DNA of 8,722 bases from a virus (IMGVR_UViG_2526164674_000023), one strand, 5' to 3'; positions 5,099 through 8,722 are shown, counted from the first letter of the stretch. Notes: a model not told the origin generated them from the sequence alone. A program made the numbers and translations.

Positions 5099-6190
5099 AT
5101 GCGTGATTACGCAAAAGTTTCTCCGCGATTCTGGCTGGGAGAAACGGGGAGAGAACTTAGAAAGGCGGGTGCAGAAGCGCAAGTTGTTGCTTTTTACCTG
5201 ATGACATCCCCTCACGCAAATATGCTGGGTTTGTATTACCTGCCAGTTTTATACCTTGCTCATGAAACCGGGCTTGGTCTGGAAGGGGCTTCAAAGGGGC
5301 TTAAAAGGGCTGTTGAAGCTGGTTTTTGTAGCTATGACCATGATGCAGAGATGGTCTGGGTCCATGAAATGGCAGCCTGGCAGGTTGGGGAAACGTTGAA
5401 GCCTGGCGATAACCGTTGTGCAGGTGTCAGGAATGAGTATGCATCATTACCTGAAAACGCTTTTCTGTCAGTGTTTTACGACAGATATAAAACGGATTTC
5501 CATCTGGATGTGAGGCGGAATAATAGCCGAAATTCGGTAAGGGGCTTCGAAGGGGCTTTTAAGGGGCTTCGAAGCCAAGAACAGGAACAGGAGCAGGAGA
5601 AAGAACAGGAACAGGACAAAAACACTATGGTTCATGGCAAAAAAAACACCACGAACCAGGCAGGGGATGTTCAGACCGTCAATCCTGGTCAGCCAGCAGG
5701 CACGACACCGGAAGCCGATTCGGGCGCTGTGCAGCAGGTGATGACCGCAGGGTCGGAGCAATCACACCAACTGCAGCAGCCTGAAGCCGATTCCGCCATT
5801 CAGCGGGAAGCCGATCGGGTAGTCCCGGAAAGCACCGGGCAGTCTGTGGGACGAGTGGATTATCCGGATGTGTTCGAACAGGTCTGGCGGGAATACCCGT
5901 TGCGTGCTGGGGCAAACCCGAAGAAATCCGCTTTCAGTGCCTGGAAGGCCAGATTGCGCGAGGGGGTGCCACCAGAGACCATGCTGGATGGTGTGAGGCG
6001 TTACGCGAGATACCTGGCGGCGACCGGGAAAGCGGGAACGGAATTTGTTCAGCGAGCGACGACGTTTTTTGGGCCGGACCGGAATTTTGAAAACCCCTGG
6101 TTGCTCCCGGTAAGCGGCACGAACAACCAGCGTTGTGTGAATCATATTTCTGAACCGGATACCGAAATTCCGCCGGGATTCAGGGGGTGA
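5099..6190 (+). CDS. phage replication initiation protein (lambda O-like role; acidic QEQEQEQEKEQEQ linker; C-terminal domain resembling DnaT-type replication proteins)
   Basis: Lies immediately upstream of and coupled to the DnaC-like gene (stop 6188-6190, next ATG 6197). Preferred start is ATG 5099 with GAGG 5 nt upstream (MRDYAKVSPRFWLGETG...); the ORF-track start at 4988 has no SD. Contains iteron-like DNA repeats internally, as lambda O does. Family identity is inferred from context and composition, not from a search. Confidence 0.7.
   Translation: MRDYAKVSPRFWLGETGRELRKAGAEAQVVAFYLMTSPHANMLGLYYLPVLYLAHETGLGLEGASKGLKRAVEAGFCSYDHDAEMVWVHEMAAWQVGETLKPGDNRCAGVRNEYASLPENAFLSVFYDRYKTDFHLDVRRNNSRNSVRGFEGAFKGLRSQEQEQEQEKEQEQDKNTMVHGKKNTTNQAGDVQTVNPGQPAGTTPEADSGAVQQVMTAGSEQSHQLQQPEADSAIQREADRVVPESTGQSVGRVDYPDVFEQVWREYPLRAGANPKKSAFSAWKARLREGVPPETMLDGVRRYARYLAATGKAGTEFVQRATTFFGPDRNFENPWLLPVSGTNNQRCVNHISEPDTEIPPGFRG
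5270..5657 (+). repeat. iteron-like direct repeats (candidate replication origin inside the initiator gene): GGGCTT motifs at 5270, 5286, 5297, 5307 and AAGGGGCTT x3 at 5539, 5550, 5561 with 11-bp spacing, then GAACAGGA-type repeats (5578-5617) and an A-rich stretch (5617-5650)
   Basis: Seen directly. Seven copies of one hexamer in about 300 bp, with helical-turn (10-11 bp) phasing. The 11-bp spacing puts successive copies in different codon phases, pointing to DNA-level rather than protein-level selection. Confidence 0.5.
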
Positions 6191-6196
6191 TGTGGC

Positions 6197-6943
6197 ATGA
6201 AAAACATTGCGGCAGCCGGGGTTCTTGAACGTATTCGCAGACTTGCACCACAGGCGTCGGTTCCACCGTACCGGACGGTGGAGGAGTGGCGGGAATGGCA
6301 ACTTGCTGAAGGACGAAAACGCAGCGAGGAGATTAACCGCCAGAATCACCAGTTGCGGGTGGAAAAAATCCTGAATCGTTCGGGCATCCAGCCTCTGCAC
6401 AGCAAATGCTCGTTTGCGAATTATCAGGTGCAGAACGACGGGCAAAAATACGCGCTGAGCCAGGCCAAATCCATAGCTGACGAACTGATGACCGGGTGCA
6501 CGAATTTTGTGTTCAGCGGTAAAACCGGCACCGGGAAAAATCACCTTGCAGCGGCGATGGGTAACCGGCTGATGGCGAAGGGGCGCAGCGTGATTATCGT
6601 CACCGTGTCTGATGTCATGAGCGTGTTGCATGACAGCTACGACAACGGCAAATCCGGGGAAAAATTTTTACAGGAGCTTTGCAGTGTTGATTTGCTGGTC
6701 CTGGATGAAATAGGCGTTCAGCGGGAGACGAAAAACGAGCAGGTGGTATTACACCAGATAATTGATCGCCGGACAGCATCACTGTGCAGTGTCGGGATGT
6801 TAACAAACCTGAATCATGCCGCAATGAGTACACTTCTTGGTGAGAGGATTATGGACCGCATGACCATGAACGGTGGTCGATGGGTGACGTTTAACTGGGA
6901 TAGCTGGCGTCCAAATGTCAGCAATATGAGGGTTGTGAAGTAA
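6197..6943 (+). CDS. DnaC-like helicase loader / IstB-type AAA+ ATPase (YdaV-like phage replication protein), 248 aa
   Basis: Walker A-like FSGKTGTGKNHLAAA and Walker B LLVLDEIG are visible in the translation. GGGGG 9 nt upstream of the ATG. Position directly after the initiator gene matches the lambda O-P / Rac ydaU-ydaV arrangement. Confidence 0.85.
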   Translation: MKNIAAAGVLERIRRLAPQASVPPYRTVEEWREWQLAEGRKRSEEINRQNHQLRVEKILNRSGIQPLHSKCSFANYQVQNDGQKYALSQAKSIADELMTGCTNFVFSGKTGTGKNHLAAAMGNRLMAKGRSVIIVTVSDVMSVLHDSYDNGKSGEKFLQELCSVDLLVLDEIGVQRETKNEQVVLHQIIDRRTASLCSVGMLTNLNHAAMSTLLGERIMDRMTMNGGRWVTFNWDSWRPNVSNMRVVK

Positions 6944-7750: not shown

Positions 7751-8146
7751 ATGGCGAAACCTTTTACACACGAACAGCGTGAAGAACTGAAGGCCCGAAT
7801 TATCGGGCTGGTACGCAAAAATGAACGCATGACGATATCACAACTGGAGAGAGCGACGGGAGCAGGCTGGCATTCAGTCAGACGTTGCCTTGTGGATGTA
7901 CTGGCTTGTGGCGATTTATACATGCCCGGTAAATACGGTGTTTTTACATCAGAACAGGTGTATCGCGTATGGCGTAAGGCAGCGGAGAAAGCAACCGACC
8001 AGACATTGATTCGAAAGTTACCAGACGGAGAAATACGCCGCTACGACAGACAACAGAACATAATCTGTGGCGAGTGCCGGAAGAGTGAAGTTATGCTGCG
8101 TGTACTGGCGTTCTATCAGGGCAATTTTCAGGAGGCGGTACTGTGA
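7751..8146 (+). CDS. hypothetical phage protein (131 aa), possible N-terminal wHTH
   Basis: SD GGAGG 5 nt upstream of the ATG at 7751. Stop overlaps the next ORF's GTG (GTGA). Translation has an HTH-like stretch (MTISQLERATGAGWHSVRRCLVDV). Confidence 0.6.
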   Translation: MAKPFTHEQREELKARIIGLVRKNERMTISQLERATGAGWHSVRRCLVDVLACGDLYMPGKYGVFTSEQVYRVWRKAAEKATDQTLIRKLPDGEIRRYDRQQNIICGECRKSEVMLRVLAFYQGNFQEAVL

Positions 8147-8571
8147 GTGAATTAGCTATCAGGCTTCAATTGTCGCTGGCATTCGCATCAAAGGAGAATG
8201 AGATGACCACTTTTACAAAAGAGCAGTTAATCAGTCATGTTAGTGAAAATGTAAAGGCGATGAAATTTGCAGTAAAACAGACAGCATTCAAAAATTCTCT
8301 CGAGGCAATTGAGTTGGATTTAGCACTGGCCCTTGTTGCTCAGGCTTCGCTGGAAGCAGAGCCCGTGCTTTATATGAATCGATTTACCGGAAAGACATTC
8401 TCACTGGAAGAGCAACCCGGTGCTGATAAGGAACCGGAAATATACGTGCCGCTATATGCTGCCCCGCCAGACAGCGCCGCCATGCTTCAGGCTGGAAACT
8501 TTCGGGAAAAAAGGGTTCGTCAACCAATAATTTTCGGGAAATCTCGGAAACGTCAACCAACTATCCGGTAA
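8143..8571 (+). CDS. hypothetical phage protein (142 aa from GTG 8143; alternative ATG start at 8203 gives 122 aa)
   Basis: GTG at 8143 overlaps the upstream stop and has AGGAGG 7 nt upstream. ATG at 8203 also has a good SD (AAGGAGaatgagATG). Contains a ...YVPLYAAPP... stretch of the kind seen in Ead/Ea22-like nin-region proteins (recollection, unverified). Confidence 0.55.
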   Translation: MSELAIRLQLSLAFASKENEMTTFTKEQLISHVSENVKAMKFAVKQTAFKNSLEAIELDLALALVAQASLEAEPVLYMNRFTGKTFSLEEQPGADKEPEIYVPLYAAPPDSAAMLQAGNFREKRVRQPIIFGKSRKRQPTIR

Positions 8572-8603
8572 CTCTGGATGATTGGATAAGCTGTAGTGAG
8601 CGA

Positions 8604-8722
8604 ATGCCGGATGATGGTCAGCACGTAATTATTTTATGTGATGGCGCATTCGTTCTTTATGCGCAATATCGAGACGGTGAGTTTTTTGATGTAGTCCGTA
8701 ATGGTGATGAATTTTTCGAAAC
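8604..8722 (+). CDS. DUF551-like phage protein, partial (3' end off window; true start uncertain)
   Basis: Frame open from 8430. Translation ...LDDWISCSERMPDDGQHVIILCDGAFVLYAQYRDGEFFDVVRNGDEFFE resembles DUF551 phage proteins (W-I-S...R-L/M-P-E/D N-terminal motif). The first in-frame ATG is at 8604, but the conserved WIS motif lies upstream of it (8583-8591). Confidence 0.5.
   Translation, partial: MPDDGQHVIILCDGAFVLYAQYRDGEFFDVVRNGDEFFE

Follow-up and report, generated by a model that had tools for sequence, protein, structure and literature searches.

An 8,722-nt virus sequence (IMGVR_UViG_2526164674_000023; the whole stretch is referred to here as the window), which was 100% identical to a lambdoid prophage of Escherichia coli O157:H7, contained short phased repeats within a gene predicted to encode a replication initiator. 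Repeats of the unit AAGGGGCTT were conserved at the DNA level regardless of what protein sequence they encoded, co-occurred only with one type of initiator N-terminal domain (N-domain), and were located in the replication module. The repeats are probably iterons that are bound by the winged-helix N-domain encoded by the same gene and that form a lambda-type origin of replication inside the initiator gene. An initial annotation of the window had proposed such an origin from GGGGCTT iterons in two clusters, and the lambda-like layout that it described fit the position of the second cluster (cluster B) in the linker between the N-domain and an exchangeable C-terminal module (C-module), with a helicase loader gene next (Table 1).

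Exact copies of AAGGGGCTT were found five times in the window (starting at positions 5283, 5294, 5539, 5550, and 5561), all inside the initiator gene, compared to 0.08 copies expected, and none of 200 dinucleotide-preserving shuffles reached five copies. The 20-nt dimer AAGGGGCTTNNAAGGGGCTT, with an 11-bp period, was present in three copies (0.00 expected from shuffles). Chance is excluded as the source of these repeats. Tandem Repeats Finder (TRF) reported arrays with a period of 11 at 5283 to 5309 (2.5 copies) and 5539 to 5574 (3.3 copies) and an array with a period of 6 (GAACAG) at 5579 to 5616 (6.3 copies). The first array extended into the degenerate unit AAAGGGCTG, which was not kept in the family consensus. 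In the window, cluster B was located 256 bp from the first cluster (cluster A). Cluster A encodes residues 62 to 68, which form the N-terminal half of predicted helix H3, and cluster B together with the glutamine-glutamate (QE) tract that follows it corresponds to residues 145 to 175, a disordered linker (predicted local distance difference test [pLDDT] score below 50).

The three perfect cluster B copies reported in the initial annotation, with their 11-bp spacing, were recovered as exact 9-mers. The palindrome GGCTTCGAAGCC at 5565 to 5576, the occurrence of consecutive copies in all three codon phases, and the short repeats encoding a QEQEQEQEKEQEQ linker (the period-6 array) were also confirmed. 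For cluster A, GGGCTT had been placed at 5270, 5286, 5297, and 5307; the two middle copies, belonging to the units at 5283 and 5294, were conserved in the family, but those at 5270 and 5307 were not conserved in homologues. The sequence at 5307 is GGGCTG rather than GGGCTT, and the 5270 copy precedes the next one by 16 bp, which puts it outside the 11-bp phase. An A-rich stretch, annotated at 5617 to 5650, was present (AT skew of +0.7 to +0.8 across 5560 to 5649) but was not conserved; it lies at or after a mosaic junction. Inside it, a minus-strand terminator-like hairpin followed by a T-run was observed at 5628 to 5658 (TGGTTCGTGGTG...GCCATGAACCA, then TAGTGTTTTT), which may be a chance occurrence because one such site was found compared to 1.8 expected. 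Scanning of positions 4850 to 6250 for promoters and terminators revealed nothing exceeding shuffled expectation, and no Rfam family matched the repeat region of the initiator gene.

Table 1. Coordinates of the repeat elements, initiator domains, and neighboring genes in the window
Feature	Position	Strand	Remarks
Cluster A, two exact AAGGGGCTT units (5283-5291, 5294-5302)	5283-5302	+	Encodes EGASKGL
Degenerate third unit AAAGGGCTG	5304-5312	+	7/9 match, 10 bp past previous unit; lineage-specific
AT-rich zone with low GC content at third codon positions (GC3), directly 5' of cluster B	5440-5538		Candidate DNA-unwinding element
Cluster B, three exact AAGGGGCTT units (5539, 5550, 5561) in 11-bp phase	5539-5569	+	Encodes RGFEGAFKGL
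Invariant AAGCCAAGA, fourth unit, 11 bp past last iteron	5572-5580	+	≥90% conserved at all bases but one
Hexamer tract, (GARCAR)n, coding for the linker QEQEQEQEKEQEQ	5576-5617	+	TRF period 6
Replication initiator gene, 363 amino acids (aa)	5099-6190	+	RefSeq "hypothetical protein" WP_001205823.1, same coordinates
N-terminal winged-helix domain, aa 1-144	5099-5530	+	Presumed origin-binding module
Exchangeable C-terminal module	5619-6190	+	Mosaic junction at ~5619
DnaC/IstB-like AAA+ helicase loader gene, partner of the initiator	6197-6943	+	Pfam IstB_IS21, 3.9e-19; PHROG 50 "DnaC-like helicase loader"
CI-like repressor gene	3167-3568	-	Early-right region
Cro/YdaS-like gene	3677-3949		Early-right region
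CII/YdaT-like gene	3933-4358		Early-right region
ECs1072-family gene	4565-5020	-	NCBIfam NF033230, 105.7 bits

Conservation of the repeats among homologous genes

Homologous sequences were collected from phages (9 loci), species-representative genomes (79 loci), and 80 viral contigs. Removal of duplicates left 125 distinct sequences, of which 41 served as representatives at <88% nucleotide identity, with host GC contents between 39 and 65%. The initial annotation had argued that the repeat is maintained at the DNA level, and alignment of the homologues bore this out: the nucleotide repeats were kept, whichever way they were oriented and in either of two frames, and it was the encoded amino acids that changed, the reverse of the outcome that the annotation had named as refuting its proposal.

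Cluster A read GAA GGG GCT TCn AAG GGG CTT in the 41 representatives. Codons GAA (100% observed, 55% expected from each gene's own codon usage), GGG at its first position (100% observed, 34% expected), GCT (82% and 22%), AAG (100% and 65%), GGG at its second position (95% and 33%), and CTT (90% and 22%) were all used in excess. The third base of the serine codon, which falls in the 2-nt spacer between the cluster A units, varied freely, and the commonest codon at six other invariant glycine columns accounted for just 35 to 63%.

Alignment of cluster B, anchored on the serine codon that follows it, produced the consensus aag[SSS]c.. gAAG[SSS]CTtc. AAG[SSS]Ctt.. AAGCCAaGA.CAgGA.CAgGA. In the two proximal units, the central triplet was GGG or CCC in 91 to 92% of the 125 genes, with other G/C triplets being rare and AAG...CTT flanking the triplet. 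Unit orders included FF, RR, FFF, and RRR (F, forward; R, reverse) as well as mixed ones (for example, FFR, FRR, and xFR). Each unit was AAGGGGCTT or its reverse complement, AAGCCCCTT, and the encoded peptide changed from EGASKGL to EAPSKPL or QAPSKPL. The GGG/CCC triplets and mixed orientations indicate that the unit is an oriented 9-mer that is accepted either way round. Cluster A was forward in every gene examined, and the disordered linker encoded at cluster B explains why cluster B flips and shifts frame while cluster A does not.

The block following cluster B, AAGCCAAGA, was similarly constrained, with serine encoded by AGC in 41 of 41 representatives, glutamine encoded by CAA in 88%, and the preceding codon ending in A regardless of the amino acid encoded. 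Of the 125 genes, 118 encoded S-(QE)n by AAGCCARGA followed by (GCARGA)n. Loci L051, L063, L076, L084, and L085, from at least three lineages, read the block and tract one base earlier, as K-P-(G/R)-A-(GA)n, such that the hexamer tract became (GGA GCA)n, encoding (GA)n; the change of frame was due to a unit that was spaced 12 bp or missing. These frame-shifted open reading frames (ORFs) regained a C terminus homologous to that of a canonical sister (L076 with L086, and L085 with L080), and therefore a particular protein sequence is not required in the linker, whereas the DNA persists, hexamer tract included. The (GARCAR)n tract was present in all homologues, in 4 to more than 25 copies. Approximately 25 QE copies were counted in L064, the L051 contig ends within the repeat, and at least one assembly is broken by the hexamer tract; an unrestored frameshift within the tract of L160 represents either a pseudogene or a sequencing error.

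Exact 9-mers were concentrated within a 330-nt span of the 125 loci (349 copies, compared to 20 copies in 603 kb of flanking sequence), and no other repeat array was found in the 2.5-kb flanks sampled around homologous loci. Most of the 20 flanking copies belonged to a third, noncoding cluster of two to three units in 11-bp phase and in either orientation, located within ~45 nt 5' of the start codon and with its last unit ending 4 to 17 nt before it. This cluster was found in lineages of Acinetobacter as well as in L031 and L072, and AAGSSSCTT units overlapped the promoter/Shine-Dalgarno region in L004 (positions 1440 to 1490), L018, L023, L035, L036, and L038 (for example, AAGCACCTTacAAGCCCCTTcgAAGGAGCTT). 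It was absent from the window and from 32 of the 41 representatives. The upstream cluster is probably an autoregulatory operator.

Distances between clusters A and B were quantized across homologues (254, 266, 278, 289, 302, and 314). Helical phasing between the clusters was considered as a reading of these values and rejected; gain or loss of 11-bp units combined with frame restoration suffices to explain them, and the distances were therefore not counted in favor of looping.

The lowest GC content of the initiator gene in the window (35%) was found at 5440 to 5499, and GC3 was 0.12 to 0.32 under the gene mean in the final ~15 codons before cluster B. Among 40 homologues, AT content in the 80 nt preceding cluster B exceeded the local mean by 7 to 11% in 90 to 95% of genes (-120 to -60 relative to the anchor), and at -40 the excess was 5%, in 75% of genes. 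It is this zone 5' of cluster B (~5440 to 5538), and not the annotated A-rich stretch, that is conserved.

Initiator domains and a parallel arrangement in 689R5/Tritos-type genes

The initiator start was assigned to the ATG at 5099, with a GAGG Shine-Dalgarno sequence at 5090, in agreement with the RefSeq coding sequence. The protein matched PHROG 1701 ("DnaD-like helicase loader") from end to end (E = 9e-149) and PHROG 6251 weakly (E = 1.5e-4). No Pfam family matched the 363 residues at an E value of ≤0.01, so that no lambda O-protein profile match was obtained, and neither Pfam nor hhalign revealed profile similarity of the N-domain to the phage replisome organizer N-terminal family (689R5/Tritos/phiEf11 type). 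An AlphaFold model of the initiator had a mean pLDDT of 79.7, with values of ~88 to 98 across residues 10 to 144, and the modeled N-domain had the topology of a winged helix, H1(25-36)-b1-H2(50-57)-H3(60-73)-b2-b3. By this topology, H3, in which cluster A is encoded, would be the recognition helix. A sequence search of the PDB with the profile of the N-domain family produced no match, and Foldseek comparison to the PDB returned winged-helix matches only, all of them nonsignificant.

The two parts of the initiator gene had different relatives. From 5619 to the stop codon, the gene was 91 to 92% identical at the nucleotide level to seven E. coli phages that have unrelated N-terminal halves; in the E. 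coli genome set, 2329 records matched at 90 to 95% identity, and those listed matched the C-terminal part only. The N-terminal 160 residues were found in 983 protein clusters (90% identity) at 58 to 82% identity, joined to many different C termini, in hosts including Klebsiella, Citrobacter, Salmonella, Proteus, Acinetobacter, Cupriavidus, Caballeronia, and Achromobacter. The N-domain family, which lacks a Pfam model and appears in RefSeq as "hypothetical" or "DNA-binding protein," ranged across Enterobacteriaceae, Acinetobacter, Burkholderiales, and Xanthomonadales. Its members occurred in Shiga toxin (Stx)-converting phages and in prophages carried by clinical Klebsiella and Acinetobacter. 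Ten homologues were sampled for the gene 3' of the initiator, and in nine of them it encoded a replication partner, annotated as DnaC-like (4), DnaB helicase (3), lambda-P-like (1), or primase-helicase (1).

The last 24 residues of the initiator (aa 340 to 363, positions 6119 to 6190, ending in EPDTEIPPGFRG) weakly matched the C-terminal end of a DnaT primosomal protein profile (NF002770; E = 0.0019, far under the cutoff), and annotations as "primosomal protein I" probably stem from this match. The IPxGFRG tail, which may be a loader-docking peptide, recurred in those Shigella and Klebsiella phage relatives whose partner gene is DnaC-like and also in homologues P0009 and P0035.

Genes of the 689R5/Tritos type share the C-module of the window and have an unrelated N-domain (hhalign probability, 0.2%). 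These genes contained a different iteron, GTCAC(G), with four copies at gene nucleotides 129 to 160 and three to five copies at 389 to 430, in 10- to 11-bp phase. The two clusters were ~260 bp apart and were followed by a GATAAAGATACA repeat encoding an acidic linker, TDKDTDKD, and then by the shared C-module. This arrangement was conserved in E. coli, Pseudomonas, and Aeromonas phages. The clusters were located at positions 1154 to 1179 and 1414 to 1496 of L170 and were also present in L253 and L254, with (ACAGATAAAGAT)n encoding TDKDTDKD. By blastn, only the GTCAC(G) iteron region (63 nt, 80% identity) was tied to the replisome-organizer gene of Enterococcus phage phiEf11, and a scan of viral contigs with the 689R5 N-domain yielded 100%-identical copies only, which were uninformative for comparison. 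Each type of N-domain is thus accompanied by its own repeats and linker tract, which fits a cognate pair of binding domain and site and argues against a common recombination linker.

Alternative explanations and a proposed mechanism

Several explanations other than an iteron origin were weighed. The units could be sites at which the initiator or another regulator acts in autoregulation only, as an operator or transcriptional roadblock within the gene and 5' of it, with the true origin elsewhere. In plasmid Rep proteins, a single winged-helix domain serves both origin binding and autorepression, and the noncoding cluster over the promoter/ribosome-binding-site region in Acinetobacter lineages, L031, and L072 is consistent with such a role, as is the failure to find a strong AT-rich unwinding element. 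Autoregulation alone was nevertheless judged improbable, given that the upstream cluster was missing from the window and most representatives (32/41) while the intragenic clusters were near-universal, that the sampled flanks held no other array, and that the placement of the repeats where the N- and C-domains meet, next to an AT-enriched zone, copies the layout of lambda, SPP1, and phage L (PMC7466680, PMC6316719, PMC8022706). Retention of the junction DNA as a recombination linker, with homology kept for swapping of C-terminal modules, would account for the mosaic junction coming directly after cluster B and its (QE)n tract and for the many different C termini borne by N-domain homologues. 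We consider this very unlikely: such a linker should be common to N-domain types, but genes of the 689R5 type, which share the C-module, contain GTCACG and GATAAAGATACA instead; cluster A and the noncoding upstream clusters are at no junction; and a central triplet limited to GGG or CCC points to site recognition and not mere homology.

Pairing of cluster A (AAGGGGCUU) with an inverted cluster B (AAGCCCCUU) in mRNA, with a regulatory effect on translation, was suggested by the perfect complementarity of the clusters over 9 to 20 nt in reverse-type homologues and by an imperfect A/B inverted repeat (73%) reported in a repeat search of the window. Its probability is minimal, since the clusters share one orientation and cannot pair in the window or in any forward-type gene (Klebsiella, Citrobacter, Proteus, and E. 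coli), orientation varied unit by unit, noncoding units occurred in either orientation, and compensatory flips of cluster A were not seen. A repeat selected purely as protein, comprising the peptide motif EGASKGL and a QE linker under biased codon use, has almost no likelihood at all. Two copies of EGASKGL are indeed present in forward-type proteins, and most members keep S(QE)n unchanged; however, the nucleotides persisted while the amino acids changed (EAPSKPL, QAPSKPGAGAG, and RAGAGAR), the motif codons were fixed although nonpreferred in high-GC hosts, and noncoding copies exist. The data contradict the protein-repeat, mRNA-pairing, and recombination-linker explanations, and all three were rejected.

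Some observations weigh against an iteron origin. A tblastn search of PLSDB (6 records) revealed no real plasmid or minimal replicon carrying the initiator gene: the 32-kb "plasmid" inspected was a linear chromosomal or prophage fragment, and two other records were of chromosome size or came from a strain with a chromosomal locus. A sharply AT-rich unwinding element was absent, with the enrichment amounting to ~10% and partly reflecting amino acid composition, and the (CAGGAG)n tract had a GC content of 67% in high-GC hosts. Because the upstream cluster is operator-like, some units may serve autoregulation rather than initiation. The prophage copy in the window is probably defective because an insertion sequence (IS) splits the neighboring DUF977 gene, and the repeat element may therefore be unused in the O157:H7 strain. 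The conservation percentages are not independent trials, as the homologues share ancestry.

From the evidence for an iteron origin we infer that the initiator is the binding protein, that the site fires as an origin, where unwinding would take place, and that the clusters could be joined by looping. Initiator molecules would occupy the 11-bp-phased cluster B units and the adjacent AAGCCAAGA block on one helix face, and cluster A, upstream, would probably be occupied too. The resulting nucleoprotein complex would destabilize flanking DNA at one of two candidate sites, the AT-rich zone separating the clusters or the (GARCAR)n tract, which is rich in purines. The C-terminal module would then recruit the DnaC-like loader, which would load host DnaB.

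A broader interpretation, which we regard as doubtful, is that the arrangement represents a distinct and ancient origin architecture common to unrelated "replisome organizer" initiators. Two clusters of short, orientation-free units ~25 helical turns apart, with cluster A in recognition-helix codons, would trap a ~260-bp loop holding the AT-rich zone, and the purine tract with trinucleotide periodicity that follows cluster B, (GAR CAR)n, would be a functional DNA element kept in two frames. The tract might serve, for example, as a track for single-strand binding or for unwinding, comparable to DnaA-trios, on which the AAA+ loader or the initiator would act.

Prophage setting, related systems, and significance

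The initiator and loader genes belong to the early-right region of the prophage (Table 1). The ECs1072-family gene is antisense, between the CII/YdaT-like and initiator genes, within the expected rightward early operon. Genes for a RelE/ParE-family toxin (2661 to 2948) and a RelB antitoxin (2948 to 3139), both on the minus strand, directly adjoin the CI-like repressor gene. The early-left region contained a Qin/Kim-type cell-division-inhibition cassette on the minus strand, consisting of the DicF antisense small RNA (937 to 988; Rfam RF00039, 76.9 bits), dicB (564 to 752), and ydfB (~2099 to 2227). The insertion that splits the DUF977 gene, 3' of the replication module, was ISEc8 (IS66 family), at approximately 7751 to 8722 of the window (L001:8852-11715).

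An intragenic iteron origin is, as a kind of element, textbook. The lambda origin sits in the middle of gene O (PMC7466680), SPP1 oriL is within gene 38 (PMC6316719), and gene 18 of phage L contains six 11-bp repeats described as "likely the origin" (PMC8022706). The lambda ori/O system, including that of Stx phages 933W and P27, has its origin within the initiator gene, where an iteron-binding N-domain meets a C-domain that recruits the helicase loader encoded by the next gene (PMC7466680), and the proposed origin of the window is placed likewise. In both cases, the iterons dictate linker amino acids, and N-domain and iterons move as one specificity module among mosaic phages. In contrast to lambda, the window initiator had no sequence relationship to O (no Pfam match), the units were 9 bp at 11-bp phase rather than four to six iterons of ~19 to 20 bp, and two clusters 256 bp apart were present, one of them in the region coding for the DNA-binding domain, with unit orientation being free. 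The AT-enriched zone was 5' of the main cluster with a conserved hexamer tract 3' of it, and the partner was DnaC-like, not P.

Salmonella phage L gene 18, with six imprecise 11-bp repeats (TGTCCAACGGA), and P22 gene 18 likewise have short repeats of 11-bp period in a lambdoid initiator gene. The origin of phage L was proposed from sequence alone, and the partner helicase gene is downstream, as in the window (PMC8022706). Phage L differs in its repeat sequence and initiator family, a single array was reported, and comparative proof of DNA-level selection was not given. G38P of Bacillus phage SPP1 binds direct repeats in its own gene beside an AT-rich unwinding element, and SPP1 also has a second, separate repeat cluster (oriR) and loader and helicase genes that follow (PMC6316719). 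The second site of SPP1 is ~13 kb away, compared to 256 bp here, the host is Gram positive, and no sequence similarity was detected.

The E. coli phage 689R5/Tritos initiators are alike in their two-cluster layout, tandem-repeat acidic linker, and shared C-module and differ in their unrelated N-domain and iteron sequence. Iteron plasmids (RepA, RepE, and pi) likewise combine direct repeats in phase with an initiator of the winged-helix type, and they have additional sites for autoregulation at the initiator's own promoter, comparable to the upstream cluster in Acinetobacter lineages. Literature searches for the 9-mers returned primer sequences only, and topic searches revealed no paper on the N-domain family or its repeats. 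What is unusual here is the combination of two clusters, free unit orientation, a cluster in recognition-helix codons, and a hexamer tract kept in two frames.

Locating this cis site gives these phages a precisely placed candidate origin that can be tested, together with a specificity determinant, of use in prophage annotation, in building mini-replicons, and in understanding the exchange of replication modules. It is also an unusually clean natural case of dual coding, in which DNA is preserved through inversion (Gly-Ala to Ala-Pro) and a change of frame (QE to GA) because the protein sequence of the linker does not matter and the DNA does.

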